Source: an uncultured virus (IMG/VR IMGVR_UViG_3300032177_003246)
Lineage: Duplodnaviria > Heunggongvirae > Uroviricota > Caudoviricetes
Length of the DNA: 20,000 nucleotides
Reading direction: 5' to 3' (one strand)
IMG/VR virus record: IMGVR_UViG_3300032177_003246
Position numbers and translations under genes: made by a program. Position 1 is the stretch's first letter; the number at the start of each line of letters is the position of its first letter. Below, piece after piece: positions 554-16,322 of this stretch. The notes beneath the pieces were generated by a model. It was not told the DNA's origin. It ran no database searches and worked only from the letters and a program-made list of their open reading frames with translations.

Positions 554-1456
554 ATGGGCGATAACGCGGAACTCCACCGCAAGATCCACGACTTCCTCCT
601 GACCGAGTGGGCGCGGAAAGACAACCGCCAGCTCGTCGAGGTTCACCTCATGTACGCGCCCACCGGAGGCTATCGCAACGAGCCCATCCGTAAGTGGATA
701 CGCGCTGACGAGCCCGAATTCTTTGCCGAGATCATCAACGTCGAGAAGCTCGTCACGCAGATCGTCGAGATTGCCGAGGGCGAGGTCGACGGAAAACCGC
801 CTGGAAGGCACAGCTTCCGCCTACGCACGCAGCAGCATCTAGGGGAGCAGGCGAGCATGTCGTTCGCCCTCCAGCCCAGCTACAACGGCAACGACGAAAA
901 CGCGATCATGTCGAACTTCAGCGGCGCTCGTGGTGGCGGTGGTGGCGGTGGTGGCGGATCAGAAATCGCTGCGGCACAGATCCTCGCGAGCAACAACGGG
1001 CAGCTCATGCGGATCAACACCCAGATGTTCGATGGGACGATCCGCGTCCTCGGACATCAGGTGCAAAACCTCCACGAGCAGGTCATCGCCCTGACTGCCG
1101 AGAACTCGAAGCTGCGTACCGAGCTAGAGGAGGCGCGATCGAACCGCATGGATCGCGAGTTCCAGATGGCGATGGCGCACGAAAAGAACGCGCGCAGCAA
1201 CCAGGCTCTCCAGAAAGTGCTCCAGCTCGGTACCGTCGTGGTCGCCAAGATCGGTGCCGATGGATCAGGCTCCCAACAGATGGGCGAGGGCAACCCGCTC
1301 ACGATGCTGATCAGCGAGTTCTATCAGTCCCTGCGCGAAGATCAGCGCATGGGTCTCGTGCAGATCCTCGACATGCCGCAGAAGATCATGTTCTTCGAGA
1401 TCGTGAAGCTCGTGACCCCGCAGCAGGGGCAGGGCCAGCCGCCACCGGCGAAGTAA
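554..1456 (+). CDS. Hypothetical protein (300 aa) with poly-Gly linker and coiled-coil segment
   Basis: Long ORF with GC3-rich codons. Start more likely at ATG 554 (MGDNAELHRK) than 407. Heptad-like stretch VQNLHEQVIALTAENSKLRTELEEARS. Converges on the minus-strand array at 1456/1460. Confidence 0.8.
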   Translation: MGDNAELHRKIHDFLLTEWARKDNRQLVEVHLMYAPTGGYRNEPIRKWIRADEPEFFAEIINVEKLVTQIVEIAEGEVDGKPPGRHSFRLRTQQHLGEQASMSFALQPSYNGNDENAIMSNFSGARGGGGGGGGGSEIAAAQILASNNGQLMRINTQMFDGTIRVLGHQVQNLHEQVIALTAENSKLRTELEEARSNRMDREFQMAMAHEKNARSNQALQKVLQLGTVVVAKIGADGSGSQQMGEGNPLTMLISEFYQSLREDQRMGLVQILDMPQKIMFFEIVKLVTPQQGQGQPPPAK

Positions 1457-1981: not shown

Positions 1982-2773
1982 TTACTTCGTTTCCGTCGAG
2001 CGAAGCTCTTCACGAATGATGCGGCGTAGGGCGCTCTCATCCGCAGCCCCTTCCGCCTTGTCCCGCAGCCCACGAATCGCGGAATAGAGTCCTGCGGCAC
2101 CCATGATCCCGAGCGCTGTCAGCGCACCGATCTTGAGGACACCCAGGATCGCCGTCGCCTCAGAGCCGTTCCCCTCATCGGCGTTCTGCCAGATCGTCTT
2201 GGGGAGTGATGTCGGCTCCGTGCTCTGAAGCGTGACGCCGTGCGCGCGGGCGAGCGCGCGCAGCTGCTTGAGCCGGCTCCACCACTGCTCGAACGTCTCC
2301 CAGCTCGTCGCCATGCGCGTCCACCACGACCTGTTCTCGCGCGCGACAAACTCTCCAAACTCGGCGAACGTCGGCGTGACATCTGCGGCGATCCAGTGCA
2401 CGACGCCGCTCACGTCGGCATCTGGGTCGCTCTTGTTCCGTGCGACCCACAGCGCGAGATCATTCGAGAGCGCCTTGAAACCCGTCGAGACCTGCATCAT
2501 CGCGCGCTCGCGATCCGCGACGGTATGAAACAGCTCTTGCCCGACGATCGTCGCCGGTTTCGCAGCTTCGTCCCGACCGCCGATGCCCTTCGTCGCGGCC
2601 CACATACGCTGCGCACCACGCGCGCCCTTGTAGACGTCGCCGATCGCAGGCAACGCAGGACGCAGCGCGGCGCCGACGGTTTCGTCGCGCACGTAGTCGA
2701 GCGTTTGCTCGCCAACCCATCCAGCCACGAAATGCTGGTCGTCTGGACCGTATGAGCCACGATCGCGCGTCAT
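1982..2773 (-). CDS. Membrane-anchored helical protein, local paralog family A
   Basis: ATG at 2773 overlaps the upstream TGA (ATGA). Starts MTRDRGSYG. Contains LFHTVADR, TSWETFEQWWSRLKQL and PTSLPKTIW, plus a C-terminal hydrophobic helix. Homologous to 8829-9510 and the C-terminal part of 9507-10934. Confidence 0.8.
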   Translation of the reverse strand: MTRDRGSYGPDDQHFVAGWVGEQTLDYVRDETVGAALRPALPAIGDVYKGARGAQRMWAATKGIGGRDEAAKPATIVGQELFHTVADRERAMMQVSTGFKALSNDLALWVARNKSDPDADVSGVVHWIAADVTPTFAEFGEFVARENRSWWTRMATSWETFEQWWSRLKQLRALARAHGVTLQSTEPTSLPKTIWQNADEGNGSEATAILGVLKIGALTALGIMGAAGLYSAIRGLRDKAEGAADESALRRIIREELRSTETK

Positions 2774-3534
2774 CGTCCCCACCCTACCCCGGATCGCCCG
2801 TAGCATCCGCGCGTGTTCCCCGACACGTGCGGCGCCAGATCCTTGCGTAGATTCCAGTACGCCGTTCCTACCCGATCAACGTAATAGTGACCGTTCTTGG
2901 TGGGATTGAGATCCACCGCCGTTCCCTTGTCAAAGAGTTCCCAGCGGGCTGGCGTGGGAGGCTTTCCAGGCTTGCGATCTGCGGGTGACTCTTTCCACAA
3001 AATCCAGTGCTTGATGCCAGCGGCCATCAAAGCATCCTTCGCGTCGTCCCACGTCCGTTGAATCGTCGCCCCCGACGTGTCGAGCCGCACGTCGTCGCGT
3101 CCTCCCGCCTTGACGCGCGCGATGACTTCGTCGACGGACATCGGGGTGCCTTTGCCGCCACGAACAACGTCCGTCACGAATGTCCCCAGCCGACGCTGGA
3201 ACTCGTCCTGCGTGAACTCGTCCGCCCCAAGTTCCCAAAGGTAGAAGCGCGCGTCGTCTCGCGTGCGCGCGCTTGGATCCAGCTGCTTCGAGCGCGGCGT
3301 GTTCGCGACAGGAGCCATCCAGAAAAACAGGGGCTGCGCGTCTTTCGGACGCGGCGGTAGCGCGGGGGCTGGCTGCGAAGGAGCGCTTCCACCGTCAGTT
3401 CGAGCGTCGCCCCCGCCTCCTCCGAGACCGAAGCCGCCGAAGCCGAAGTTTCGGATGAGCCAGTAGAGACCAAAACCGACGCCAACGCCGAGCGTGAGCT
3501 TGCCGAGCGTTTCTGCTGTGGAGTTCTCAGCCAT
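2770..3534 (-). CDS. Membrane-anchored hypothetical protein, possible ExbD/TolR-like periplasmic subdomain
   Basis: N-terminal TM (LTLGVGVGFGLYWLI), Gly/Pro linker, segment DDVRLDTSGATIQRTWDDAKDALMAAGIK, and C-terminal RGCYG tag. Confidence 0.7.
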   Translation of the reverse strand: MAENSTAETLGKLTLGVGVGFGLYWLIRNFGFGGFGLGGGGGDARTDGGSAPSQPAPALPPRPKDAQPLFFWMAPVANTPRSKQLDPSARTRDDARFYLWELGADEFTQDEFQRRLGTFVTDVVRGGKGTPMSVDEVIARVKAGGRDDVRLDTSGATIQRTWDDAKDALMAAGIKHWILWKESPADRKPGKPPTPARWELFDKGTAVDLNPTKNGHYYVDRVGTAYWNLRKDLAPHVSGNTRGCYGRSGVGWGR

Positions 3535-3540
3535 GCCGCC

Positions 3541-4497
3541 TCATCCGATCACCTGCTTCATGATCGGATCGATCTTGTCCCAGATGTCTTGGCACGTCAC
3601 GGTCTTCAAACCGAACGGATCAACCTCGGTACCCTTGCCGGTCGTCACGATCAGCTTCACCTGCGACGTTGACGGATCCCAGACCGCTCGAAGCCTGACG
3701 TTGTACTTACGCGTGTCGATGTTGTAGGGATTGCTGCCCGCGACGCCCATCCCTTCGGATCGCAGCTTCACCAGGAGCGCGTCTTTGACGCGCTCCGTGA
3801 CGCGCTTGTACGTGCGCACACCGCACTGCCCAACGCCGAGAGCTTTCAAGGCAGCGGCGATGCGCTTGTTGTTCTCGTCGACCTTCGCCGCGCTGTCGCT
3901 CACCGCTTGGCGCTCATCTTGGGTCTGTGCATTCTTGGCAGCTTCCGCCGTGTTCTGCGCGGCTTGCTGATTCGCGTCCGTGGCCTCAGCGACATGATCG
4001 GTTGCGACGTCCGCTGCTGCCTGCGCGCCATCCGGCGGCTGCGGTTGCTGCGGCTGCGGCTGCGGTTGCTGGGGCTGCGGCTGCGGCTGCGGTTGCGGTT
4101 GCGGTTGCTGGGGTTGCGGCTGCGGCTGCGGCTGCGGCTGCGGCTGCTGTGGCTGCGGCTGTGGCTGCGTCGGTCGCGACTGCGGCTGAGGTTGCGGTTG
4201 TGGTTGTGGTTGTGGTTGTGGCTGCTGTGTCGGGCGCGGCTGCGGTTGAGGCTGCACCGGCGGCCTCGGGCGTGGTGGCGCCTCCGGTGCTGTGGAAGCA
4301 GCTTGCTGCTGACGACGCGCTGCGGTCACTGTCGCGTTTTGCGCGTTGTTCAAATGAGCATCAGCCGCCTGGTGAGCCGCGTGAGCCGCGCGGATCGCCT
4401 GCGCGTAGGCGTCGACCCGTGAACGCGTCCGCGGCGAAAATTCGTACGCGGTGAGTGCCACGCCGATGCCGAGCGCGATCACGATCAGCGGGATCAC
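3541..4497 (-). CDS. Membrane-anchored protein with Pro-Gln stalk and C-terminal family-B-like domain
   Basis: N-terminal TM (IPLIVIALGIGVALTAY), Ala-rich helices flanking a long (PQ)n tract, and a C-terminal domain that begins after VGQ and has two Cys. Confidence 0.8.
   Translation of the reverse strand: MIPLIVIALGIGVALTAYEFSPRTRSRVDAYAQAIRAAHAAHQAADAHLNNAQNATVTAARRQQQAASTAPEAPPRPRPPVQPQPQPRPTQQPQPQPQPQPQPQPQSRPTQPQPQPQQPQPQPQPQPQPQQPQPQPQPQPQPQQPQPQPQQPQPPDGAQAAADVATDHVAEATDANQQAAQNTAEAAKNAQTQDERQAVSDSAAKVDENNKRIAAALKALGVGQCGVRTYKRVTERVKDALLVKLRSEGMGVAGSNPYNIDTRKYNVRLRAVWDPSTSQVKLIVTTGKGTEVDPFGLKTVTCQDIWDKIDPIMKQVIG
4036..4250. repeat. Imperfect 6-bp coding tandem repeat (GGCTGC/GGTTGC/GGTTGT)n encoding (Pro-Gln)n
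   Basis: Directly visible microsatellite-like tract inside 3541-4497. Confidence 0.95.
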
Positions 4498-4700
4498 GGG
4501 ACGTTCACGATCTCGTCGAGAAAGTCTCGCGCATCAATCTGCGCAAGCGCGTGACCCCCGGTCGAAAGCTTTTGCTGACCAGCCGATCGCAGGCCTTCAA
4601 CCGCAAACGCGGCCGAGCGAGCGGCGCACACTGCATCGCCGCTGCGATCGAACACGAGCGCGTAGGTCGCCGCCCAGACGAGACGCTCGCCGTCGCTCAT
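4494..4700 (-). CDS. Small hypothetical protein (68 aa)
   Basis: Start and stop both overlap neighbouring genes by 4 nt (ATGA at 4697-4700, GTGA at 4494-4497). Confidence 0.65.
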   Translation of the reverse strand: MSDGERLVWAATYALVFDRSGDAVCAARSAAFAVEGLRSAGQQKLSTGGHALAQIDARDFLDEIVNVP

Positions 4701-4903
4701 CGAGGCTTCCTAGGAACGAGGGCCGCACGATCGGCAACACCTTCACGCGTCATTCGCGCGTTGTAACGCGCGACGCAGGTCGTTAGGAGAAGCGTGCTCG
4801 GACACCGAGCCGTAAGCCTGAAGGCCTCCGGTCGAAAAGTCATGACGGTGCCGTCACGCTTCTCGATCATGACGGAATAGTCTTCGAGCACGTCGGTCGG
4901 CAC
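4697..4903 (-). CDS. Small hypothetical protein (68 aa, MPTDVLEDYSVMIEKRDG...)
   Basis: 3' part of track ORF 4697-5254. GTG at 4903 is preceded by a GAAGGGAG SD, and the stop overlaps the next ATG. Confidence 0.6.
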   Translation of the reverse strand: MPTDVLEDYSVMIEKRDGTVMTFRPEAFRLTARCPSTLLLTTCVARYNARMTREGVADRAALVPRKPR

Positions 4904-4914
4904 GTGGGCTCCCT

Positions 4915-5316
4915 TCACAGCTTCTCGGCGATGAGCCCCATGCCGCCCCACAGCGCAGAGCGCGTGAAGTTCACGCAGCCCTCCGACAGGCGGGTGAGTG
5001 CGTCGGTGCTGCCGAAGCTGCCAGCCTTGCCGCTGAGCACGCGGCGATCGATCTGGCAGCCCGCATACTCGACGAGCGTTCCCAAGATCCCGTACGCGAA
5101 GCCGCGCGCGAGGATCGGCCAGTTGTCCACGTACGGCGCGACGGCCGTAAGTACGACGCCGTTGACCGCGTAGACCGGCATGAACGGGATCTTCGCGCCT
5201 TGAAACACCGACGAGTAGCGGTCCTGTTCGCAGAGCGCGTTCTCCGCGACCCATCCGCCAACGCCGAACAGGGCCATCTTTTGGACGATGTCTCCGATAT
5301 TTACTTTCGATGCCAT
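4915..5316 (-). CDS. Small integral membrane protein resembling the DUF1113 / putative ABC-export permease pattern
   Basis: AGGAG SD. Pattern FGxxGWxxE...PFMPVY...hydrophobic...VEYxG...LWG, with several TM helices. Family call is from recalled motif only. Confidence 0.6.
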   Translation of the reverse strand: MASKVNIGDIVQKMALFGVGGWVAENALCEQDRYSSVFQGAKIPFMPVYAVNGVVLTAVAPYVDNWPILARGFAYGILGTLVEYAGCQIDRRVLSGKAGSFGSTDALTRLSEGCVNFTRSALWGGMGLIAEKL

Positions 5317-5348
5317 GGCTTCTCCTGTCTCAGCGTGAGATCGCTCTT

Positions 5349-5395
5349 AGTATATCTCGGCCACGCGCGCCTACTCGAACGCGGCACGCGCGTTC
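5349..5395 (-). promoter_or_regulatory. Intergenic stem-loop plus TATACT -10-like box upstream of the 4915-5316 gene
   Basis: Perfect 7-bp stem GAACGCG-N5-CGCGTTC at 5377-5395, and TATACT on the minus strand at 5349-5354. No good -35 element. Confidence 0.35.
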
Positions 5396-5407
5396 CTTTC
5401 AGTGCGT

Positions 5408-7294
5408 TCAACCAACCGTCACGATCGGAGCGTTGGGGATAACAGCCCGCGGCTTTGCATCACCGATCGCCTCGTCGTGAATGCGCGCGCTGCCGTCCGG
5501 ATCCTTGTCACAGGCCGCGGCGTAGATGAAGACCTCGCGATTGCGGGTCGCGTGCTGGAGCCATTCCATCGCGCGCGCGAGGCTGCCGAAGCCGCGGCCA
5601 TGGAGCGTGCCGTCCGCGTACTGGATGACACCCGCAGCCTTGCCCTGCTTCGTGCTCGCGTGCGTGCGTGCAACATCGCGCATGTCTTCGAGGGCAGCGC
5701 CGACGATCTCTTCCCATTGGCCGACGGTCGCGATGTCGACCCAGCCGCCAGGCGACGCGCCGACGATCTCCTGCCAGCCAGAGACGTTCGGTCCACGACC
5801 TGTCGCCTTCTCCCAGAGCTTGGCCCCCCACTCGCTCTTCATCGCGTTCGCGACGAGATCGGCCACGGCCTTGGCAGCTGGATCACCATTCTCGGCATCC
5901 GTCGCAACGGCCGCGATCTGTTGCTGCGCGTTGGGGTCGCCCTTGGCTGCCTTCTTCGCGGTGTCCTGGACGTGATGCGCCGCCGTCGAGTTCGCGACCG
6001 CCTTCGTGGCCTCTTTCAGCGCGAGTGCGGTCACCGGATCGGTCTTCGCCTGCGCCTGCGCCTGCTGGACGGCCTTCGTCGCCTTGCTGTCGCCCGCTGC
6101 CGACTGCACGAGGTCGTTGGCGAGCTTGCCAGCGATCGGTGCAGCGATCGGCCCGACGCCCGGGATAGCCATCGCCGCCGAGGCGGCGGCGATTCCAGCG
6201 GCGGCCCCGATCGGACCCTTGAGCTTCTTGAACGTCGCCGCGACGCCGCTGGCCACGCCCGTGACGGCGCCCTTCACGGCTCCGGCGATGTCGCCGAGGA
6301 TGCTGCCGCAGATCGTGTCGACGTGCTTGGCAAGCAATGCCCCGACGATCGCATCCTCGGCCATACCGACCGCCGTCTCGACGGTGCTGACGACCGTCTC
6401 CGGTGCTGGCTTGGGCGCGTGCATTCCATCGTGCCAGCTCGCGAGCTTCTGCATGACCATCGCGATCGCAGGCGCGAGGTTCATCGACGTCTCGTAGCAC
6501 TTGCCGTCGACGCAGATCTTGACGTGCAGGACCTGCTTGTCGTCGAGGCGCTTTTCGACCGTGACGCCACCAGTGGCGGGTGCGACGATCGGCGCCAGAT
6601 CTTTCGTGAGACCTGTGCGCTGCTCGGCACCGACACTCTCGCGCGTTACGCCTGTCTGCTGGCGAACCTCAGGGAGGACCTTGCGAGCCTCGACAAGGCC
6701 CAGGTGCGGCAACTCGCGACGCCGTAGGAAGCCCTGGTTTGGATACGGAGCGAACGGAGCGCTTTTTTCGAGAGCGCCAAGAAGCTCTCGGAAGGCGAAA
6801 ATCAGTGCAGGCGTGCCCAGCTCCTGTACAGGCCCGTGCGATGCCGAAGCCCCATGAAGGCGCGCGTTGATGCGCTCGGAGAGCGAAAGCAACTCCGACC
6901 GAACGGGCTCATAAACGTTGGTCTCCCAGACGAGCACCGGATACGCCTTCTTGTGACGCTGATAAACGTCGGAGCGACGTTCCGCAAACGCGTGCTGACG
7001 CTTCACCGACGCGACGCGCTCGTCATACGACGTCAGGGTCTTGTGCCGATCTGCTTCTGCCACCCAGGCGTTTTGGATCGACGCGTACTCAGGGCTGCCC
7101 GTGATCTGCGCCGTCGCCGCGCCCACGGCAGCCTGCACGTCTCGCCAGAAGCGCGAGAACTCGGCGTACGCCTGTTGAAAATCCTCCGCCTCTCCTCCAA
7201 CGACCACCCCGTAATAGGGGCGGTACCACGGCCGAAAAAAGCCGAAGCCGGGCGCAGAAAGGGCGGTGAGTTCAGCTCCAAGGGTATGTGTCAC
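5408..7294 (-). CDS. Multidomain protein (628 aa): helical N-domain, family-C core, VG-repeat linker, family-D domain
   Basis: GGAGGAG SD before the GTG. The core (LAPxxAPATGG...HVKICVDGKCY...AxxGDPxA...GAKLWExATGRGP) is shared with 7350-8420. The C-terminal domain is shared with the repeats of 11734-13455. Confidence 0.85.
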   Translation of the reverse strand: MTHTLGAELTALSAPGFGFFRPWYRPYYGVVVGGEAEDFQQAYAEFSRFWRDVQAAVGAATAQITGSPEYASIQNAWVAEADRHKTLTSYDERVASVKRQHAFAERRSDVYQRHKKAYPVLVWETNVYEPVRSELLSLSERINARLHGASASHGPVQELGTPALIFAFRELLGALEKSAPFAPYPNQGFLRRRELPHLGLVEARKVLPEVRQQTGVTRESVGAEQRTGLTKDLAPIVAPATGGVTVEKRLDDKQVLHVKICVDGKCYETSMNLAPAIAMVMQKLASWHDGMHAPKPAPETVVSTVETAVGMAEDAIVGALLAKHVDTICGSILGDIAGAVKGAVTGVASGVAATFKKLKGPIGAAAGIAAASAAMAIPGVGPIAAPIAGKLANDLVQSAAGDSKATKAVQQAQAQAKTDPVTALALKEATKAVANSTAAHHVQDTAKKAAKGDPNAQQQIAAVATDAENGDPAAKAVADLVANAMKSEWGAKLWEKATGRGPNVSGWQEIVGASPGGWVDIATVGQWEEIVGAALEDMRDVARTHASTKQGKAAGVIQYADGTLHGRGFGSLARAMEWLQHATRNREVFIYAAACDKDPDGSARIHDEAIGDAKPRAVIPNAPIVTVG

Positions 7295-7349
7295 GACGGC
7301 TCCTCCGTATGCCTGAGGGCAGCCCCAGACTTCATGCGATTGTCTTCGG

Positions 7350-8420
7350 TCACCACGACCACGAGCCGACTGTTCCGGGCCCGCGCCCGGTGGCGCGCTC
7401 CCAGAGCTTCGCGCCCGCTTCTGACGACATGGCGCTCGCGATCAGGTCAGCAACGGCCTTTGCGGCAGGATCGCCCCTCTCCGCACTCTGGGCGACGTCG
7501 ACGATCTTCTGCTTCGCTGCGGGGTCGCCGGCCTCGGCTTTTTGGGCGGTGTCCTTCACGTGATACGCAGCAATCGTCTGAGCGACCGCATCCTGAGCGC
7601 TCTTGAGCGCTTTCGCCGCGACCGGATCTGTCTGGGCCGCTTTCTCGGCCGCTACGACGTCCGGATGCTTCGTCTTCTTACCGAACTCGGCAGTCTGATC
7701 GATGATCGGGCCGACGAGCTTGGCAGCCGCGGCCCCCGCAAGGGGTCCGCCGTAGACGGTCGCGACCGCCGTGGCCGCTCCTGTGATCGGAACTTTGAGC
7801 TTCTTCACGAGACCTGAAGCGACTTTGTGGATGCCGAGAACATCCAACTTCAACGTGGTGTTCACGACCTTGGTCAGCCCGCCCTTGATGTCGTCGAGCC
7901 ACCCGCCGCTTGCCACATCGATGTGGCGCGCGATCAGCGCGCCAACGATGGCGTCCTTCGCGGCGCCGACCGCAGTCTGGACCTTGTCGACCACGATCAA
8001 CGGTGCGGGCTGCGGAAGATGCATGCCTTGATGCGCGCGCGCAATCTTCTGCATCACCATCGTGATCGCAGGCGCGAGGTCCATCGACGTGGCGTAGCAC
8101 TTCCCGTCGACGCAGATCTTGACGTGCATGACTTGCCGGTCGTCGAAACGCGTCTCGACGAGGGCGCCGCCTGTTGCTGGAGCGAGGACCGGAGCAAGCT
8201 CGGCGGTGAGCCCGGCGCGCGAGGGAAGCTCGCCTCCTACGATGTCTACCCAGCCACTGACGAAGGCGCCGTCAAACAGCTCCCGGGATTCGCCATCTGC
8301 CGCTGGTACCCAGCTCGGAATCTCGCGGTAAAACGGGTGTCCACCCCACTGCGCGCGCGGCAGAATGATACCCCCGAAGGGATCGGTCACGATGACACGC
8401 CAAGGATCCGGGCTGTTCAT
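7350..8420 (-). CDS. Paralog of the central region of 5408-7294 (family C)
   Basis: GAGGA SD. Clear protein similarity and near-identical DNA (6447-6559 vs 8048-8159). Confidence 0.85.
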   Translation of the reverse strand: MNSPDPWRVIVTDPFGGIILPRAQWGGHPFYREIPSWVPAADGESRELFDGAFVSGWVDIVGGELPSRAGLTAELAPVLAPATGGALVETRFDDRQVMHVKICVDGKCYATSMDLAPAITMVMQKIARAHQGMHLPQPAPLIVVDKVQTAVGAAKDAIVGALIARHIDVASGGWLDDIKGGLTKVVNTTLKLDVLGIHKVASGLVKKLKVPITGAATAVATVYGGPLAGAAAAKLVGPIIDQTAEFGKKTKHPDVVAAEKAAQTDPVAAKALKSAQDAVAQTIAAYHVKDTAQKAEAGDPAAKQKIVDVAQSAERGDPAAKAVADLIASAMSSEAGAKLWERATGRGPGTVGSWSW

Positions 8421-8472
8421 GGCGTCCTCATCATAGGCGCAGACAGCTGCGCGGTCTCTTTATCGTCACCCC

Positions 8473-8832
8473 TCACGGCCGTTTGGTCCCGTATTGACCG
8501 CGTGCGTTGAGGGCTTGCGCCACCTTGGGCTCATCCGGGCGACGCGCAGGGGGGATCGGCGGTCCCGGAGGCACCGGCAGCCGCGCGGTTGCCTGAAATT
8601 CCTCGGCCTGCGCCTGCCCACGTCGAACGAAGTACCGCGTGAGCACGAAGAGGCCTCCAATGAGGCCCGCGGCGCCAACAAGGTGCCCTGGACCGAAGGA
8701 TGTCGTCGAGAACACGTCCTTGGTGAAGAGCGGGTGCTTCGGCGGCGGCGGACGTGGCGGCGGCGGCGTCGTCAGCTTCGTCGTGACCGTCTTCTTGAAG
8801 TCCGTCCAGTCCATCTTCGGCGGCCAGCTCAT
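8473..8832 (-). CDS. Pro-rich single-TM protein (119 aa) with C-terminal RGQYG tag
   Basis: ATG at 8832 (MSWPPKMDW) has a GGAGG SD and an ATGA overlap with the upstream stop. TM is LVGAAGLIGGLFVLTRYF. Confidence 0.75.
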   Translation of the reverse strand: MSWPPKMDWTDFKKTVTTKLTTPPPPRPPPPKHPLFTKDVFSTTSFGPGHLVGAAGLIGGLFVLTRYFVRRGQAQAEEFQATARLPVPPGPPIPPARRPDEPKVAQALNARGQYGTKRP

Positions 8833-9510
8833 TGGCCTCCCGCTGGTAGCGCGCGGCGTCCGCGAATCAACGCGGTGTACGACGCCGCAGTGTCTTTTCC
8901 GCTGCGCAAGCTCGACGCGAGGCTCGTCACTGCCACGACAGCGCCGATTCCCAGAGCCGCGTACGCGCCGTACTTGAGGAACTTCCACGTGTCCCCGGCT
9001 CCCGCCGATACGGCACTCGCGGTCTTCTCGACAGCCGTTCCTGCTTCGTGCCACACGGTCTTGGGCGGATCTGCCGGCTTCGGTGTGTGCATCGTCTGCC
9101 CGAGGATCCGCTGCACTTCAGTACCGACGTGACCGTGAAGGTTCTGGACGCGCTTGCTCCAGTTCTCGTACGTGTCCCAGTCGGTCTTCCACTCCTCCCA
9201 GGAACTTTGCTCGCTGTAGAACGCCTTCCACTCGTTGAACACCGGCATCACCGTGTCGTGCCACAGCGGATAGAGCGGACTGTTCCTGATCCGACGCGCG
9301 GATCCGCTTCACGGCGTTGGCCGGATCGAGCCGGTGGATGTTGAGCTTGAGCGTCTCCGGATCGCCGCCCATCTTGCGGTACAACTCGTTGATCAGCTGA
9401 TTGAAGGAAGTGTCCGTTTCCTCGACGAGCTTGTCGCGATCACCAACGGTGTGAAACAGCGCGCCCGCGACGGCCGCCCGCGACATCCCGTAGTGCCCGC
9501 GCGCGCTCAT
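8829..9510 (-). pseudogene. Family A membrane protein gene split by a +1 frameshift (pseudogene, recoding or sequence error)
   Basis: The N-half (MSARGHYG...LFHTVGDR) is in ORF 9118-9510. The C-half (RIRNSPLYPLWHDTVMPVFNEW...TDWDTYENW...TM) is in the frame of 8829-9251. Joined, they align along the C-terminal part of 9507-10934. Confidence 0.75.
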
Positions 9511-10934
9511 GCGTCCTCCGAGCCCGACGCGAGGGCGCGCTGTTCGGAACCCGCCGGAAGCTTGCGCGGCGAGCGTCCTCCACGACGGCCCTGACGGATC
9601 AGCTCCATGTACTTGTCCCCCGGATCTTTGCCACTGCGCAGATTCGACACGACGCTGGTGATCGCAACGAGAGCGCCGATGCCGAGCGCTCCCCAGACGC
9701 CGTACTTCACCGTTTTCCAGACATCGCTAGCACCCTCGGCTAGTGTGCTCGCTCCTGATTTCAACGCGCCGCCGGCATCTGCCCAGACAGTTGTCGCCAG
9801 CTCGGTTGGTTTGGGCGCTTCAACGACGAAGCCACGCTTCTCCGCGTCGGCGCGCAAGTTGTCGAGCTTCTTCTTCCAGTCCTCGTACACATCCCAGTTG
9901 GTCTGGAAGCGCTCTGCGAACGAGATGTACGCATCCGCGACGGTGCGATCCCCGCCGATTTGGTCGACCTTGAACCTGTGCCACTGTTTGAACAGTGGAA
10001 GAGCGTACGACTTCCACCAGGAGACCTTTGCCGGATCGAAGCTCGCCTGCACCGCCTGTCCGCGTTTCTCGGTGAGATCTCGCGCGCGCGCAATGGCCGC
10101 GCGGCGCTGCGCTCTCGGCATGAAGGTGTCGAGCGCTTTCTTCGCGTCGAGGAACCCCTGCTTGAAGCCCTCCGCAGGCCCTGCCGCGTACGAAGTGATC
10201 TCCGTGTACGGCGGATCAACTTCCTCGCGCCAGTGCCAGGTGAGCTTCTTGTTGATGCCCGCGGCGTTGAGCAGCTTCTCTTTTTCGTACACCGTTTTGA
10301 GCAACGGCTGCCACGAGTCGACGACCTTGGAAGCCGCCAGCTCTTCTTCACGTGCCTTCGCCGCCGCGGACGTCTTGCCTCCCATCGGACCACCCATTGC
10401 GTCCGTGACATCGCCGACCTGCGGAGCGAGGTTCGCGTAAAGAGCGTCCCAGTCGAGGGCCATCTGCTTGACAGCGTCAGCACGATCGCCCACCGAGTGA
10501 TAGAGCGTGATCCCGACGAGCGGTGTCGAAACGGGAACGTCCTCTGCGAACGCGCCGCCTACTGTCGTCGCGCCGAACGTCTGAAGGAGTGGTGTGATCC
10601 CCTGGAGAACCTTCTCGTAGTGGCGACGGACCGACGGCACCTCGTCATCGCGATGCACTTCACGATCGGTGATCGAAACTTCGAGTCCGTTGAACTGCGG
10701 GTACCATTGCACGTCCACCCATCCCGCATTTCGAAGCGCGATTTGCCAGTGGTGCTCACCGATCGCGGTCTGCGTGCCGTTCTTGGCCAGCTCGCTCAGG
10801 AGCTTGGCGACGCCGCCGGTCTTGACGTGATCGTACCGCTGCTTGAGCGTGAGCACCTGCACGAGATCCGCACCGACGTACGTGCGACCGTAGCCGTTGG
10901 CTCCGTAGTTACCGTACTGACCGCGTCCGTTCAT
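9507..10934 (-). CDS. Two-module membrane-anchored protein: family B domain plus family A domain
   Basis: Starts MNGRGQYG. The family B domain lies between YVGA and GATTVGG. It is followed by LYHSVGDR...TNWDVYEDW and a C-terminal TM (VKYGVWGALGIGALVAITSVV). Confidence 0.85.
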   Translation of the reverse strand: MNGRGQYGNYGANGYGRTYVGADLVQVLTLKQRYDHVKTGGVAKLLSELAKNGTQTAIGEHHWQIALRNAGWVDVQWYPQFNGLEVSITDREVHRDDEVPSVRRHYEKVLQGITPLLQTFGATTVGGAFAEDVPVSTPLVGITLYHSVGDRADAVKQMALDWDALYANLAPQVGDVTDAMGGPMGGKTSAAAKAREEELAASKVVDSWQPLLKTVYEKEKLLNAAGINKKLTWHWREEVDPPYTEITSYAAGPAEGFKQGFLDAKKALDTFMPRAQRRAAIARARDLTEKRGQAVQASFDPAKVSWWKSYALPLFKQWHRFKVDQIGGDRTVADAYISFAERFQTNWDVYEDWKKKLDNLRADAEKRGFVVEAPKPTELATTVWADAGGALKSGASTLAEGASDVWKTVKYGVWGALGIGALVAITSVVSNLRSGKDPGDKYMELIRQGRRGGRSPRKLPAGSEQRALASGSEDA

Positions 10935-10947
10935 GCGCTGACCCTCT

Positions 10948-11334
10948 TCACGGCGGATCCTTCGCAGGAAGCGTCGTGTTGTGTGGTGTGTTGCCCTCGG
11001 GGAGCATCCTGGCGAGCTTCCATCCGAGCATCATCGCGATCGTGTCGCCCGTGATGTTTTTCCAGGTGTCCTGCGTCGGGTTGGGCCACAGCTCAGGCCA
11101 CTTGTCCTTGAACTGCCGCTCGATCACCAGATCGAAGAAGAGTCCGCTCGCGAGCGTTGCCCACGCTGGCAAGCGTCCGAGACCCGCCATGACACCGAAC
11201 GCAGCGTGCGCTGCCGTGAAGCGATCGATGAAGCCGTAGTTGTCTTCGCCCGGCAGTGCCGTGCGTTGCTGACCGACGACAGGAGCGCTGGATGCAACGT
11301 GCGCGTTGTAGGGGGGCTTCATCTTGTCATCCAT
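10948..11334 (-). CDS. Small integral membrane protein with D-x5-H...E...N-x3-D...GW pattern (possible intramembrane metal site)
   Basis: IDRFTAAHAAFG...FFDLVIE...DTWKNITGDTIAMMLGW, with about three hydrophobic helices. The leader ends in PVVGQ. Confidence 0.7.
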   Translation of the reverse strand: MDDKMKPPYNAHVASSAPVVGQQRTALPGEDNYGFIDRFTAAHAAFGVMAGLGRLPAWATLASGLFFDLVIERQFKDKWPELWPNPTQDTWKNITGDTIAMMLGWKLARMLPEGNTPHNTTLPAKDPP

Positions 11335-11335
11335 C

Positions 11336-11737
11336 TCAAAAGGGCTTGGCGACCGCGCCCGATTTGAGGACTCGGAACAAATCCCTGGCGGTCACGTCGA
11401 TGAGCGTGCTGGTGTCGACGTAGTAGATCATCTTGCGAAGATACGCGCGCAACTTGCCGAGGAAGTCGGGTCGATTGATCAGCGTGTTCGCCCGATCGTT
11501 GATGAACCCCTGCCGACGCAGATGCGCGATGACCTGCGCAGCGATCCGGTTGAAGGTTGCGTCGTCGCCGATCACCGCTTGGATCGTCGACAGTACCAGC
11601 CCACGCGCACCAGCCCAGTTCGGATCCTTCGTAGGATCGTAAGACGCTGCGTAAACCGTTTCACCAACACCCGTCCATGACCAAGCCGCCGCGACCGGAT
11701 AGTAGTGCCCGTCTTGACCAACGTAGTAGTCATTCAT
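11336..11737 (-). CDS. Hypothetical protein (133 aa)
   Basis: ATGA-coupled to the upstream gene. The N-terminus MNDYYVGQDGHYYP parallels MNAYADYVGADGHSYP of 11734-13455. Confidence 0.75.
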   Translation of the reverse strand: MNDYYVGQDGHYYPVAAAWSWTGVGETVYAASYDPTKDPNWAGARGLVLSTIQAVIGDDATFNRIAAQVIAHLRRQGFINDRANTLINRPDFLGKLRAYLRKMIYYVDTSTLIDVTARDLFRVLKSGAVAKPF

Positions 11738-13455
11738 TGCGCTGCTCCTTCACGCGCCATCGGCACGCTCGCATCACCGAAGTTCTCTGCCTGGACGTAC
11801 GCCTTGCCGTTCGAATCCTTGTCGAACGCTCCGGCATACGCGTAGTTCGCCTTGCCCAGGCTCGTTGCGCGGTTGAGTCCGTCGATCGCGTCATCGAGCG
11901 TGTTGAACGGTTGCGAGTGCGCCCTGCCGTCCACCGTGATCACAACGACCACGGCAGCACCCGGCTTCGCCGTTGCGATCTGCTGTGTGCGTGCGCGATA
12001 CGCTTCGATTTCGGCACGCGTCGCGCCGACGATCGGAGCGCGCCGTGGACGAGGTCCCGGTGCGGCCTTGCCGTAGCCACCGAACTTCTCGATGTACGGC
12101 GCCGGCCAGCTGTCGCCACGCTTGTCGAAGTACGCGGCGTACGTGTACGCGTTCTGATCTTGCGTAGCCGTGTTCAGCCAGTCATCCGCATCGTCTGGGC
12201 TGTCGAACGACAGCGCGTGCCACAGGTTGTCGCGCGTCGTGTGAATGATACCGATCGCATCGCCCGCACGCTTCTGCGCCATGAGGCGAGCGCGCGCGCG
12301 AAGAGCGTTCCGTGCTTCTTCGAGCTTCCGTGCTTCTTCGTGCCTGGCTTCTTCGGTTGTGACCCCCACCATGTACTCGTCGTACTGACCAACAGCCGTC
12401 GACGAACGGTCCGTGACGTACTGCGAGATCATGGCAAGGTGCGCGGGGTCGTAACTCTTGCTCCACGAAACCGGGCTTGGCCAGTGGCGGCTCGTCTTAT
12501 CGAACACCGCGCGCGCGATGATATCGGACTGTTGACCGAGTGCGCGAACGTAGTCCTTCGCTTCGTCAAGCGCGGTGAAACTCAGGATCTGCGGCGAGGG
12601 CGCGAACGTGACCTGGCGACCTCCGGACGGAGACGGAGACGGAGACGGAGCTGGCAGCCACCACACGTAGAAGTTCGCGGGCGGCATCGACGGGGTGTAT
12701 TCCGCGATGTCACGGATCGCGCTCTGGATCAGAGAGCGCGCCAGCGCGGAGGCTTGCCGCTTCGCGGCTTCATCGACCTGCGCGCCGACCCACGGAGCGA
12801 ACTCCACCCATGGTGCGTTCCCCACGATGTCCACCCATGGAGCGTTCCCCACGATGTCCACCCATGGCGCGTTCCCCACGATGTCCATCCACGGCTCAGC
12901 GCCAACCGGCGGTACGCAGCCGACGAAGTCGACCCACGGATCGTCACCGACCGAAGGAACGCCGCAGCCGACGAAGTCGACCCACGGATCATCACCGACC
13001 TTGGGCGGCGCGCCACCCGGCAGAAGAGGCCGCACGACGTCGCGCAGCGGCGTGACGTTGGGACGTGACGCGGGCGGCTCTTGGTACCGCCGTAGGAAGT
13101 AGCCCGCAGCGCCGCCAAGGGGCAGTCCGAGGAAGAAGGGCCACACGTTGCCGACCTGCTCGTTACCGACCATCGGCGTCCGATTGAAGTGCTCCATGCC
13201 GGGCACAGGCGCGTCCAGATTCGACAGCGCGAACACGGCAGCGTAGTCGTGCTCGGGCTGCTGCTGGATGTGGCTGCTGAACCAGCCCTGCGCGTCAGGC
13301 AGCGTTCCGAAGAGATAGACACTCTGCCGCAGCCCGCTGCGAATGTAGCCGTAGTACGGCGACGGATTCTGCGTGGCGGCGTTTCGCACAGCCCTCGCGG
13401 CAACTTCGGGGTAGCTGTGACCGTCGGCTCCGACGTAATCAGCGTATGCGTTCAT
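11734..13455 (-). CDS. Polyprotein-like protein with four family-D repeats, one TM segment and a W-x-D-[IF]-VG repeat array
   Basis: ATG at 13455 has a GAAGGAG SD. Four ~75-aa repeats share F-x-[ST]-[LP]-x-[DE]-A...[YR]A-x-x-F-(DK). TM is VWPFFLGLPLGGAAGYFL. Confidence 0.85.
   Translation of the reverse strand: MNAYADYVGADGHSYPEVAARAVRNAATQNPSPYYGYIRSGLRQSVYLFGTLPDAQGWFSSHIQQQPEHDYAAVFALSNLDAPVPGMEHFNRTPMVGNEQVGNVWPFFLGLPLGGAAGYFLRRYQEPPASRPNVTPLRDVVRPLLPGGAPPKVGDDPWVDFVGCGVPSVGDDPWVDFVGCVPPVGAEPWMDIVGNAPWVDIVGNAPWVDIVGNAPWVEFAPWVGAQVDEAAKRQASALARSLIQSAIRDIAEYTPSMPPANFYVWWLPAPSPSPSPSGGRQVTFAPSPQILSFTALDEAKDYVRALGQQSDIIARAVFDKTSRHWPSPVSWSKSYDPAHLAMISQYVTDRSSTAVGQYDEYMVGVTTEEARHEEARKLEEARNALRARARLMAQKRAGDAIGIIHTTRDNLWHALSFDSPDDADDWLNTATQDQNAYTYAAYFDKRGDSWPAPYIEKFGGYGKAAPGPRPRRAPIVGATRAEIEAYRARTQQIATAKPGAAVVVVITVDGRAHSQPFNTLDDAIDGLNRATSLGKANYAYAGAFDKDSNGKAYVQAENFGDASVPMAREGAAQ
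12803..13000. repeat. Coding tandem repeats: 3 x 27 bp (12803-12883) and 2 copies with 48-bp period (from 12915 and 12963)
   Basis: The unit TCCACCCATGGNGCGTTCCCCACGATG encodes NAPWVDIVG. The unit CGCAGCCGACGAAGTCGACCCACGGATCRTCACCGACC encodes VGDDPWVDFVGC. Confidence 0.9.
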
Positions 13456-13601
13456 GGCTTGTTCTCCTTCGGCGCCGGACACCTTCGGCGTTGGCTTACT
13501 GCGATTGCGAGCTTCGCGATCTCTGGGGCCTTCGCGAGGATCTCTTGCGCGGCTAGGTTACCCTGCGCCGCGTCCTCGGTAACTTTATTGTACGTGCTCA
13601 C
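13452..13601 (-). CDS. Small 49-aa protein not in the ORF track (MSTYNKVTEDAAQGNLAAQEILAKAPEIAKLAIAVSQRRRCPAPKENKP)
   Basis: Fills the gap exactly: the GTG overlaps the upstream TGA (GTGA) and its TGA overlaps the downstream ATG (ATGA). Confidence 0.6.
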   Translation of the reverse strand: MSTYNKVTEDAAQGNLAAQEILAKAPEIAKLAIAVSQRRRCPAPKENKP

Positions 13602-13981
13602 CAGCGCACCTTACCCAGCGGCGCTTGGGGCGTTGGTGCCGCTGATGGTTGCGCGGAAGCAAGGCCGCGCATGCCACCCAGTCGTGCGTCCATGGCGTCC
13701 GGCATGACTTTCGGTGGAGGCTGGAAAAGCACCGAGCGAAACACGTGAGGCACGCCATCCTTCCACCACTGCACGGTCCCGCACTTACCGCAGGTGTGCG
13801 AGCCAGGATCGCCCACGTTGAACGCGCCGAGATGCTGCCAACTGTTCCCACAAGATTCGCATGTATGTCTGTGGCAATCAAAAACATACAAACCAAGTGC
13901 CGTAATACCTACGGCTGCGCCAAGTGTGATCGCGAGCGTGCGTAGTGTATTAGGAGAGCTATGCGGTTTGCGATCATTCAT
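13598..13981 (-). CDS. Single-TM protein with zinc-ribbon (CESC...CGKC)
   Basis: TM LAITLGAAVGITALGLYVF, followed by HTCESCG...HTCGKCG. Confidence 0.75.
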   Translation of the reverse strand: MNDRKPHSSPNTLRTLAITLGAAVGITALGLYVFDCHRHTCESCGNSWQHLGAFNVGDPGSHTCGKCGTVQWWKDGVPHVFRSVLFQPPPKVMPDAMDARLGGMRGLASAQPSAAPTPQAPLGKVRW

Positions 13982-14738
13982 CTGAAGCCTTATCAGATGA
14001 TATTTGGTGTGTCGTCAGCAAATGGCTAAGGTCTGCGTGACGCAAGTAGTGCGCGGCGCGTTCTAGTAATTCAGGATCGTCGTTCACGCACCCCATAATT
14101 ATGTTGCACCGACTGCACACGAAACCGCGCAGACGTCCGGTCGCATGATCATGATCCAACGAGAGACGGCGGTTCTTGCGAGACTCAGGAAACTTGCAGA
14201 TTGTGCATAATCCGTCACAGGTCGCGAACAGTACGGCGAACTGGTCAACGGTGATTCCAAAACGCTGTTTCAAGTGAATGGCGTCGCGGACTTTTTCGTT
14301 GCTGCGCTTAATAGCCGCCTTGTACTTTTCTGGATTGTTTTTTCGCCAAACCTTGCTCTGTACGTCTGCGCATTTTTTACAAATGGATCGCCAATAGACT
14401 GTTCCCGTAGGGCCGGTGCTCTGACGATGAAAGGAAGAGGGGCGTCGGCTTTTTTTGCACTTAGTGCAAAGCTTAAATGGTCCTTGCACCGCTACTCGTT
14501 TGGCAGCGCGCGCGGCATAGAAACCTTGCAGTCTTTCTGCCGCCTGCGCTGCAAACGCTCCATCGAGTAATTGAGCTGCTCTAAGCTCACGGCCTGCCCT
14601 TCTAAATTCACCGCAAGCGTGTGCGGCTACAGCTCGTGTCACAAATCCGTCGAAAATTTCGAGCGAGTCCTCATGAAGGCTGTGCCGCATCGCTAAAGTT
14701 ACTTCCAAACGCTTGTGATATTTAGATGTTCGCGCCAT
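13974..14738 (-). CDS. Endonuclease VII-like (HNH-fold) nuclease, probable free-standing homing endonuclease; start uncertain (14849, 14738 or 14489)
   Basis: N-terminal CTKC...CKKC zinc finger, then LKQRFGITVDQF...CTIC...LSLDHDHATGRLRGFVCSRCNIIMG...ELLERAAHYL, matching the recombination endonuclease VII family pattern. Visibly more AT-rich than its flanks. Confidence 0.88.
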   Translation of the reverse strand: MARTSKYHKRLEVTLAMRHSLHEDSLEIFDGFVTRAVAAHACGEFRRAGRELRAAQLLDGAFAAQAAERLQGFYAARAAKRVAVQGPFKLCTKCKKSRRPSSFHRQSTGPTGTVYWRSICKKCADVQSKVWRKNNPEKYKAAIKRSNEKVRDAIHLKQRFGITVDQFAVLFATCDGLCTICKFPESRKNRRLSLDHDHATGRLRGFVCSRCNIIMGCVNDDPELLERAAHYLRHADLSHLLTTHQISSDKASDE

Positions 14739-14832
14739 CCAGCTGCAAAGATAGAGCGAGGGCCTGACAGTCGCGTCAGGATAGTCGTGCGTGTTCGCGC
14801 TGAATACGGCATTCCCGGTAATTTTCGCGTAG

Positions 14833-15177
14833 TTAGCGAGAGCCGTCATGCCGCCTCTTGTGCTTGCTCTTGTGCTTGCGCCCGTACTCACCGCGCTCGT
14901 TGCAGCGATCACGGTCGTCGTCGTCGTCGTGATCTCGCCGCTTCATGTGATGGTGTGCCGGCGTCCGCGCGAAGGGCTGCTGGGGCAATGACGGCGCTGC
15001 TTGCGTCATGCGTACCTGTCCTGGTGCGCCCTGTTCAGGCGCGCCTTCCGGTAGCGACGAAGGTCCCGCTGTTTTCGAACGAGGGCCGCTGACGATGAAA
15101 TATCCGACGAGCAGCGCGAGGCCGCCCACACTGCCGCCAACAAGCAGCTTCTTCTTGGTCTCGTCGGAGAGCGCCAC
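14833..15177 (-). CDS. Single-TM protein (114 aa) with His/Asp/Lys-rich tail and RGEYG tag
   Basis: 3' part of track ORF 14833-15870. GTG at 15177 lies just after the upstream stop. TM is LLVGGSVGGLALLVGYFIV. Confidence 0.7.
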   Translation of the reverse strand: MALSDETKKKLLVGGSVGGLALLVGYFIVSGPRSKTAGPSSLPEGAPEQGAPGQVRMTQAAPSLPQQPFARTPAHHHMKRRDHDDDDDRDRCNERGEYGRKHKSKHKRRHDGSR

Positions 15178-15179
15178 GA

Positions 15180-15662
15180 TCAGCCCACCTTCTTCAGCAT
15201 GAGGGCTGACGGAAACGTAATGGTGCCCGAGCCACCGCTGCCGCTGATCCGCTGTGTGAAGACCCACGGCCCGCGGATCTCGGTAACGACGTAACGGTTC
15301 TTGTCGTCGCGATCCGCCCGCTTGACGATGTCGCCAACACCGATGGACGAGCCGTGGAGGACGGCGGGCGGTACGGTGACCGCGGTGAATGCGCGCGCTG
15401 TCGTCGCGTGCGCGTGCGAGCGGCGGCGCGAAGACGTTTTCTTCGGCGATCGCTTCGTCGTTTTCTTCGACGCGTGCTGACGTGAAGACTTCTTCACGCC
15501 GAGTGCGCGACGGAAGCGGCGTGCCCCCGTCGGGTATGCCGCCCAGTCGGGCGAAAAGCCGCCGCGCGACAGCCAGCGTTGAAGGTTGGCAACCGCTTCG
15601 CGCGTGTCTGCATCGACGCGCGAGGCCTCGTCGATCATGCGCAATGTCGCGTTGGGATCCAT
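15180..15662 (-). CDS. Basic hypothetical protein with Lys/Arg/Ser-rich linker and possible SH3/KOW-like C-terminal domain
   Basis: KKSSRQHASKKTTKRSPKKTSSRRRSHAHAT linker, then IGVGDIVKR...RYVVTEI. The ATG directly follows the upstream TAG. Confidence 0.7.
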   Translation of the reverse strand: MDPNATLRMIDEASRVDADTREAVANLQRWLSRGGFSPDWAAYPTGARRFRRALGVKKSSRQHASKKTTKRSPKKTSSRRRSHAHATTARAFTAVTVPPAVLHGSSIGVGDIVKRADRDDKNRYVVTEIRGPWVFTQRISGSGGSGTITFPSALMLKKVG

Positions 15663-16322
15663 CTAGGCGCTCCTCCCCTGCCGCTTGGGACGTGCGTGCT
15701 CTGCGAGCCCGCGCAACGTCGTGCCCGCATCCTGCCGCAAGCTCGTCAAAAAGCTTTGCTGTGGCAGATCGAGTTTTTTGTAGAGCTGATCGATCAGGCG
15801 CGCCTGATGCCGGTTCCACAGCACCACACCCACGAGCGCGACCGCGCCGAGGACCTGCGCGATCGGCCACGAGGACTTCCGATCGATGTAGATCGTCGCG
15901 ACGCGATCGGGCTGTCCGACAGCGCTTTCAAGCGTGGCGCCCACAGCCGTAGCCCCCGAGCGCAGAAGCACGGACTCGATGTTGTCAGCGAGGATGCTCG
16001 CGAGCTGCTCGCGAACACGCGCCGTGTCGTCCACGCTGTGAGCGCGCGTGCTTTCGATCGTGACGACAAGCGAACCCGCGAAGTCGGGCAGCCACGAGGT
16101 GCGGACCCGGGCAGCGGTGTCAGCAAGTTCGAATTCCCACACGTTCGTCTTGATCGACTTGCCGCTGCCGGATCGCGCCAGCGCCGTGAGCAGCTCTTGC
16201 ACCGTGGCAGCTTTGACCCCACCGTACCGCTGCACCAACCGAATGCCGGGCACGAAGGTCGCGCCGACGTCGGCGTTCACGCCGATCGGACCACGCGTGC
16301 CGTAGTGCCCGCGAGCCGTCAT
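15663..16322 (-). CDS. Family B domain protein with C-terminal TM
   Basis: Starts MTARGHYG. The domain between DVGA and GATAVGA aligns with the N-domain of 9507-10934. TM is WPIAQVLGAVALVGVVLW. Confidence 0.8.
   Translation of the reverse strand: MTARGHYGTRGPIGVNADVGATFVPGIRLVQRYGGVKAATVQELLTALARSGSGKSIKTNVWEFELADTAARVRTSWLPDFAGSLVVTIESTRAHSVDDTARVREQLASILADNIESVLLRSGATAVGATLESAVGQPDRVATIYIDRKSSWPIAQVLGAVALVGVVLWNRHQARLIDQLYKKLDLPQQSFLTSLRQDAGTTLRGLAEHARPKRQGRSA

Follow-up and report, generated by a model that had tools for sequence, protein, structure and literature searches.

The stretch of DNA analysed here, 20,000 nucleotides from an uncultured virus (IMG/VR record IMGVR_UViG_3300032177_003246; hereafter the window), encodes seven proteins that carry the pentapeptide RGxYG close to one of their ends. 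The motif is confirmed as real, it is selected as a peptide and not as nucleic acid, and it is restricted to one clade. With a probability of roughly 0.5, we read its fuller form, N-x-R-G-x-Y-G, as a docking tag for particle assembly, carried by membrane-anchored virion proteins of a membrane-containing single-jelly-roll virus.

RGxYG occurs seven times in the window

A six-frame scan of the window found RGxYG seven times in total, 7/7 on the coding (minus) strand. The DNA pattern CGYGGNNNNTAYGG was likewise found seven times, on the minus strand each time and at the same seven places only, compared with 0.17 ± 0.42 times in shuffled sequence (200 shuffles, maximum 2). All seven copies listed in the initial annotation were thereby recovered where it had placed them, and they are the sole copies in six frames. 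As a background for the motif frequency we have used G019, a GC-rich bacterial genome of 12.2 Mb, in which a looser form of the DNA pattern occurs 130 times (63 forward and 67 reverse), or about 0.2 times per 20 kb. The shuffle counts and this background are both far below the window count, and a chance origin of the tag is rejected.

The terminal placement described earlier was found again: four tags start at residue 4 or 5 of their protein (1982-2773, 9118-9510, 9507-10934 and 15663-16322), and three stop shortly before the end. The tagged proteins are as follows.

1982-2773, minus strand: tagged protein 1, a 263-residue membrane protein of the HTVxD family; RGSYG at 2747-2761 (residues 5-9); hydrophobic stretch at residues 208-224; no Pfam or PHROG match.
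2770-3534, minus strand: tagged protein 2, with a C-terminal tag and a weak N-terminal anchor; RGCYG at 2797-2811, 8 codons before the stop and preceded by VSG-N-T; 7 tagged family members among 55 matches.
8473-8814, minus strand: tagged protein 3, 113 residues; RGQYG at 8488-8502, 4 codons before the stop (NARGQYGTKRP, then stop); transmembrane segment (TM) at residues 43-59; 4 tagged family members.
8829-9510, minus strand: split HTVxD paralog, with a tagged half at 9118-9510 and a TM-bearing half, in the next frame, at 8829-9251; RGHYG at 9487-9501 (residues 4-8, in the 5′ half of this frame-broken gene).
9507-10934, minus strand: tagged protein 5, a 475-residue HTVxD paralog; RGQYG at 10911-10925 (residues 4-8), then a YG-rich leader ending in YVG; TM at residues 413-429.
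14833-15177, minus strand: tagged protein 6, about 114 residues from an inferred GTG start; RGEYG at 14881-14895, 15 codons before the stop and followed by a Lys/His/Arg-rich tail; TM at residues 13-29; 5 tagged members, by similarity and gene position.
15663-16322, minus strand: tagged protein 7, 219 residues; RGHYG at 16299-16313 (residues 4-8); leader containing PIG and DVG; TM at residues 153-169; shorter tagged orthologs in loci L009, L011 and L013.

While the count of seven tagged proteins stands, their independence does not, since four are related and the seven bearers fall into about five body families. A core of the form H-[TS]-V-x-D unites three of them as paralogs (1982-2773, 9118-9510 and 9507-10934), and the N-terminal domain of 15663-16322 recurs in 9507-10934 (35% over 117 residues). 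Pfam and PHROGs name none of the seven, and an Atlas search with protein 1 gave only matches under 0.9.

The earlier description of the bearers as membrane-anchored is right for most of them. It fails for the tagged frame 9118-9510, which has no TM (best 17-residue hydropathy 0.73; the TM sits in the next frame), and the TM of 2770-3534 is weak (hydropathy 1.30, versus 1.7-2.2 in its orthologs). The frame break in 8829-9510 is a population feature and not an assembly slip, because contigs of two other runs (X10 7189-10597 and X6 8493-9360) cross it without a gap; in the same state there, this paralog may be a pseudogene or subject to a programmed frameshift. As for the rule that an N-terminal tag goes with a C-terminal TM and a C-terminal tag with a preceding TM, it has no value as evidence, being a near tautology that every membrane protein with a motif at one end would obey. 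Because five other hydrophobic proteins of the window are untagged (3541-4497, 4915-5316, 10948-11334, 13598-13981 and 16323-17663), the tag marks a subset of membrane proteins, and a universal membrane-sorting signal is rejected.

Selection acts on the peptide

The motif is conserved in homologs. Protein 1982-2773 has 255 of them, and among the matches listed 116/120 have RGxYG near the start, with Ser (50), Thr (42), Asn (14), His (8), Tyr (1) or Gln (1) at the variable position; three of the four misses are without an N-terminus and one reads RGSYS. R5, G6, Y8 and G9 are invariant in an alignment of protein 1 with 40 homologs, a hand-picked set without the four misses.

A metagenome scan gave 27 loci, which together with the window hold 62 matches, on the coding strand only. 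When the near-duplicates L001, L006 and L026 and the distant loci L023-L025 and L027 are dropped, the 21 remaining sequences (206,126 bases) have 55 tag copies, every one of them on the coding strand (opposite strand, 0); the counts below refer to this set. On its coding strand, a spacer one base shorter occurs 4 times, a spacer one base longer 6 times, and a stop codon in place of Tyr twice; among the residue controls, RGxFG was found once, KGxYG 0 times, RGxHG 9 times, RAxYG 5 times, RGxYA 4 times and RGxYS 3 times. In the 55 tags, Gly is written with each of its four codons, Tyr with both of its codons and Arg with each of the four CGN codons. Among 16 orthologs, the pairwise differences at the four tag codons (0.72, 0.34, 0.50 and 0.79) are like those at other invariant codons, where the mean is 0.60 for five Arg and 0.62 for ten Gly codons, so synonymous variation gives the tag no special standing as DNA. 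Thus, because the copies lie on one strand, are conserved in homologs and have freely varying third positions, the tag is selected as a peptide and not as nucleic acid. The initial annotation had favoured a peptide on the ground that the reading frame is shared, and this holds for 51 of the 55 copies, which are in frame in homology-supported genes; the other four lie outside a supported frame.

It is very improbable that a nucleic-acid signal, CGNGGN4TAYGG near gene junctions, is what is conserved and that the peptide is incidental. Every copy does lie near a gene boundary, the tag Arg is written CGN in 55/55 cases (AGR 0/55, versus 5/80 at other invariant Arg codons and 11.8% overall), and two good-consensus copies sit in mini open reading frames (mini-ORFs) outside supported genes, at L003:640 and L004:5254. 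Both of these are nevertheless in frame behind a start codon, the great majority of copies are in supported frames, the third positions are as free as elsewhere, and the stop-codon, Phe and spacer-shifted variants are at background. A DNA or RNA cis-element conserved regardless of frame is rejected by the strand counts, the codon variation and the control patterns.

Asn occurs at position -2 in 24/55 copies, which extends the consensus to N-x-R-G-x-Y-G. This preference, the Val-Gly junction after N-terminal tags and the clade restriction, both described below, were absent from the initial annotation.

Gene families, termini and clade restriction

Terminal copies make up 49 of the 55 and belong to six gene families. 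The 33 N-terminal ones come from the HTVxD paralog family (26), the family of 15663-16322 (4) and a VanZ-like membrane protein (3), and the 16 C-terminal ones from the families of 2770-3534 (7), 8473-8814 (4) and 14833-15177 (5), three of the 16 being assigned partly by gene position. Two copies are internal, in a Pro/His-rich protein. Of the four copies outside a supported gene frame, two are off-frame within other genes, at chance level, and two are the mini-ORF copies at L003:640 and L004:5254, where the frame opens just before the tag; these mini-ORFs look like remnants. One ortholog with a C-terminal tag reads RGYYA.

10948-11334, minus strand: VanZ-like small membrane protein, untagged in the window; RGxYG in L004, L013 and L014, and RGSYS in L011.

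This VanZ-like protein has conserved His, Glu and Asp residues (RFTAxHAAFG, IERxFK and NITGD, in that order) and is possibly a membrane metal-dependent hydrolase.

Only 3 tag matches occur in the 161,884 bases of 13 loci that are more distant, counting both strands, and the orthologs of protein 1 in L024, L025 and L027 start without a tag. The tag is restricted to one clade. The tagged family was not found in genome_contigs, in 5 genomes that loci come from or among 147 genomes belonging to G001's order, which does not imply absence. Neither the tagged proteins nor the enzyme alone, the two-domain beta protein or the close capsid candidates described below had matches in viral_contigs, and a search with the enzyme alignment gave one distant locus.

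The clade restriction could track host range, and the bearers are single-pass proteins of uncertain topology without an obvious signal peptide; both points would suit a tag whose reader is a factor of the host bacterium (for membrane insertion, export or as a host scaffold) instead of a viral one. We nevertheless regard such a reader as quite improbable, for across the whole of G019, which belongs to the probable host order, the DNA pattern shows neither excess nor strand bias (130 matches, versus 423 for the reversed control).

A Val-Gly junction and a transglutaminase-fold enzyme

Val-Gly is enriched 1.52-fold in the structural block, versus 1.05-fold in other genes. The tripeptide xVG follows within 35 residues of 28/34 N-terminal tags (33 RGxYG and one RGSYS), versus 27% of control windows; about half of these tags belong to orthologs of one gene, so that their independence is overstated, and the association is seen in four gene groups. 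In all four N-tagged proteins of the window, xVG lies 9-12 residues past the tag. Similar junctions are abundant in the leaders of the capsid candidates. The enzyme that might act on them is encoded in the window:

18344-18889, minus strand: transglutaminase-fold enzyme; Cys92, His143 and Asp166 invariant in 49/49 aligned members.

Pfam Transglut_core (PF01841) matches 29/49 aligned members (best E 3.7e-05), the window's own protein not being among them, and the enzyme profile gave no convincing solved relative. We regard this enzyme as a candidate maturation protease. In L024 (1937-2926) and L029 (1600-2539), the Asp-Cys motif is split at the catalytic Cys by an insertion that begins with Cys and ends with His-Asn, a pattern of inteins; these are probable inteins. 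Just upstream of the enzyme gene, L029 also has a partial duplicate of it without the Cys motif.

The Cys-His-Asp enzyme occurs in relatives without the tag. Since enzyme and junction both occur where the tag is absent, tag and Val-Gly junction are best read as separate signals, and the presence of the enzyme without the tag fits an enzyme that reads the widespread Val-Gly junction and not RGxYG.

A weaker candidate than docking, though the strongest of the other functions considered for the tag, is that RGxYG is itself the substrate of an enzyme, that is, a sequon for Tyr O-glycosylation or for Arg or Tyr methylation, or an exosite, cut site or cross-link site (at Y-G) of the transglutaminase-fold enzyme. 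The Tyr-to-Phe and Arg-to-Lys variants are never above background, and genes for Methyltransf_24, FkbM, GT2, GT25 and NAD-dependent epimerase proteins lie directly downstream of the module in tag-bearing loci; besides the Cys-His-Asp enzyme of the window, there is a papain-family gene in L012. A sequon would have no need, however, to lie within 20 residues of a terminus, as 49/55 copies do; the transglutaminase-fold enzyme is present in the 13 more distant loci, which are nearly free of the tag; and x varies, with no fixed Gln or Lys for classic transglutamination.

The virus module, a capsid candidate and the host

The window is part of a module with a conserved gene order (12 loci shown), the genes of which have almost no family matches and none to PHROG structural families. 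The module resembles a late operon and would belong to an undescribed virus of the single-jelly-roll kind, probably a tailless one. Because there is no PHROG structural match and no match in viral_contigs to the clade-specific proteins, the element marks an undescribed virus group. Such a group was not found described in the literature searched, as judged by titles and the starts of abstracts. Relatives lie on contigs of 230-500 kb (231-461 kb for L004, L011 and L016), and the virus may be large. The assembly labels of the enzyme relatives (Kofleriaceae, Polyangiaceae, Deltaproteobacteria and, once, Casimicrobiaceae) make a Myxococcota host likely. No packaging ATPase (FtsK-like) was found among the ORFs scanned, which cover about 20 kb per locus.

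In relatives, a jelly-roll gene is found linked with this module. L024, L029, L030, L031 and L034 have, a short way upstream of the enzyme gene, a gene for a small beta protein, and the predicted fold of the L029 form of that protein (P0242, encoded outside the window) is a single jelly roll with a core predicted local distance difference test (pLDDT) score of 85-97. Its best Foldseek row is P23-77 VP17 (E 0.004). A wide structure search placed the major capsid protein of HCIV-1 first (Z 7.5, root-mean-square deviation 3.0, 123 aligned), tied with other jelly rolls; the top rows include P23-77, HCIV-1 and HHIV-2 (Z 7.2-7.5), level with unrelated folds. The family of this capsid candidate has 3837 representatives at E ⩽ 0.001. 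Many proteins (P0243-P0246 and others) have two to five tandem capsid-like jelly rolls, in some cases behind a hydrophobic N-terminus.

An integrated and reduced element in G019 (contig C693, about 24300-38200; L045) has two tandem capsid-like genes, an arrangement that is not seen in the loci of the tag-bearing clade, followed by homologs of six module families (27-56% identical) and flanked by host genes; it is without the enzyme, the tagged families and the tag. A coiled-coil gene at the edge of the window bears on the place of the window's own capsid gene:

19371-20000, minus strand: coiled-coil protein with a hydrophobic end; a gene of similar build (by eye and gene order) directly follows the L029 capsid candidate.

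Judged by the L029 gene order, the capsid gene of the window should lie just past base 20000. Cluster look-ups tied no capsid protein to a tag-bearing contig. A prediction of the complex between the first 34 residues of protein 1 and four molecules of a capsid protein borrowed from another virus as a stand-in scored 0.00 and was not used either way.

The relatives also encode a conserved 300-residue protein with two beta-sandwich domains (L011 14623-15525 and orthologs), a candidate vertex protein. From a weak model (pLDDT 63), it gave middling jelly-roll or penton-like matches (Z up to 7.7) and weak ones to the penton or turret proteins of PR772, PRD1, HFTV1 and STIV A223 (Z 6.5-7.2).

RGxYG occurs in 1/150 representatives of the capsid family, so that the tag as a general feature of capsid arms is rejected. 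Gly/Tyr/His-rich arms that contain HGxYG occur in some close capsid candidates (P0242, P0368 and P0392), which is a weak lead. Such long Gly/Tyr/His-rich arms and the Lys/Arg/His-rich tails after C-terminal tags would also be in keeping with an Arg/Tyr sticker that, with the basic tails, holds membrane proteins on the genome, or on a condensate within the forming particle; Arg-Tyr stickers and RG motifs bind nucleic acid. We consider this unlikely, since one exact spacing is not normally needed for a sticker, x is Glu in 8/55 copies and the residue at -1 is Asp or Glu in 24/55, and there is one copy per protein.

Proposed mechanism

The initial annotation had proposed a docking, sorting or modification tag for particle assembly. 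Because the tagged genes sit in a virus-like structural module, an assembly role is the most likely one. In the docking reading, (N)-x-R-G-x-Y-G would be a short linear motif at a free protein end, bound by a virus-encoded particle protein with a pocket for Arg and Tyr. The likeliest binder would be the capsid lattice, at its base, or a scaffold beneath it. The side chains of the motif would be read on an unfolded stretch, which would let the tag work at either terminus and recruit unrelated membrane proteins to the forming particle. The leader behind an N-terminal tag ends at a junction of the hydrophobic-Val/Ile-Gly type, where the Cys-His-Asp enzyme would probably cut after assembly. Particle formation, the presence of the tagged proteins in particles, the binding partner, the membrane side and any cleavage are what we infer here.

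Several observations weigh against docking. The counts of charges flanking the TMs fail to put all tags on the same side of the membrane, and those of the HTVxD proteins would put the short C-terminal tail, not the tagged N-terminal domain, in the cytoplasm. There are the 4/55 copies outside a supported gene frame, and the tag has been lost from some orthologs (the VanZ-like gene of the window, L009 and L016). V(x)G stands just before the tag in only 6/21 C-terminal matches, all of one family. Fold scores for the capsid candidate stay under 8, level with those of unrelated jelly rolls; close capsid relatives occur in untagged elements (G019:C693 and L024), so the capsid family as such needs no tag; and the clade's own capsid gene was seen neither in the window nor in the tag-bearing loci.

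More tentatively, the two signals may form a two-part address code of undescribed large single-jelly-roll myxobacterial viruses: an end-independent docking tag on at least six unrelated membrane families, mimicking the HGxYG of capsid arms, and a separate, universal Val-Gly cut site read by a transglutaminase-fold protease. If this were true, the tag would be a portable signal, usable at either end, for loading membrane proteins into the capsid; if the modification site were true, it would be a new sequon. In either case the handle is small, with five residues and two key side chains, and the orthologs that have lost it are natural controls. How membrane-containing vertical-jelly-roll viruses select their own membrane proteins is known only case by case.

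Other genes of the window

Three large proteins of the minus strand (11734-13455, 5408-7294 and 7350-8420) have many hydrophobic-Val-Gly junctions, including WVDIVG in tandem, and a recurring domain, some 70 residues long, that ends in Y-A-A-x-F-D; they are candidates for a scaffold or a peptide-binding module. Region 18889-19371 encodes an Asp-Arg repeat and a Tyr/Trp-rich tail, and Pro-Gln repeat tracts occur in two proteins, at 3960-4270 and 19170-19230. An Endonuclease VII-type gene (13974-14849, minus strand) lies in a stretch of lower GC, has no counterpart in the related loci and is probably a homing endonuclease insertion. The conserved coiled-coil gene at 554-1456 (plus strand) is inverted relative to the other loci shown, where it is on the same strand and after the tagged gene. 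A gene for translation initiation factor IF-3 (1-378, minus strand) is maybe element-encoded; in L001 (9272-12989), IF-3 is followed by a Lar-like gene, an NAD-dependent epimerase gene of the element family and an HNH-like gene.

Comparison with known systems

A terminal tag shared by virion proteins beside a maturation protease is known already, from T4 and the poxviruses. What sets the present case apart is one exact pentapeptide at both termini, in six families of one clade, with codon-level proof of selection on the peptide. RGxYG was not found by a full-text literature search with little coverage of subscription journals. As in docking peptides as a class, we see a short terminal peptide conserved at the amino-acid level.

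The invariant Tyr-Gly after a free residue resembles the XYG sites of spliceases, where, in the portion of the source used, a radical S-adenosylmethionine (radical-SAM) enzyme excises tyramine (PMC11414181). Unlike those sites as they are presented there, RGxYG has an invariant upstream Arg-Gly and a terminal position on membrane proteins, and no radical-SAM gene was found among 25 + 38 + 42 ORFs scanned, within about 10 kb.

By its best structural matches, the predicted capsid candidate resembles Halopanivirales-type viruses (P23-77, HCIV-1 and HHIV-2). In HCIV-1 and HHIV-2, according to the part of the source consulted, membrane-proximal proteins (GPS and VP13) position the single-jelly-roll capsid proteins on the vesicle (PMC6414509); the GPS proteins are folded, and no shared linear tag or cleavage is described in that part. 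The present element differs in having many more membrane genes, the Cys-His-Asp enzyme and sugar-modifying genes.

The capsid targeting sequence (CTS) of T4 IPI-III comprises ten residues with separable targeting and processing positions and is removed by gp21, as an excerpt of the source puts it (PMC9026906). RGxYG is like it in being a short terminal tag common to unrelated proteins, and targeting and processing would likewise be separable. To the extent that the excerpt describes it, however, the CTS is confined to the N-terminus of soluble internal proteins, in a tailed phage of the HK97 type, whereas 16/49 terminal copies here are C-terminal and most bearers have a hydrophobic anchor; the T4 CTS proper is rejected on these grounds, and we claim no sequence likeness.

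The closest analogy that has been worked out is the vaccinia A17-D13 pair. In the extracts used, tyrosines of the A17 N-terminal tail occupy a cavity at the base of D13 (PMC13672803), and cleavage of that tail at AG|X depends on I7 (PMC4213562). By analogy, RGxYG would be a Tyr-bearing terminal peptide of a membrane protein, lying beyond the site, a small residue followed by Gly, at which a viral cysteine protease cuts. In those extracts the vaccinia peptide is found on one protein at one end, and both the docking to a jelly-roll lattice and the cutting are established; here six families share one pentapeptide, placed at either end, and the virus is a bacterial one with a predicted single jelly roll and an enzyme of the transglutaminase fold. 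If capsid docking is true, RGxYG would correspond, in a bacterial virus, to the A17-D13 link of poxviruses and would offer a portable tag with which to load membrane cargo.

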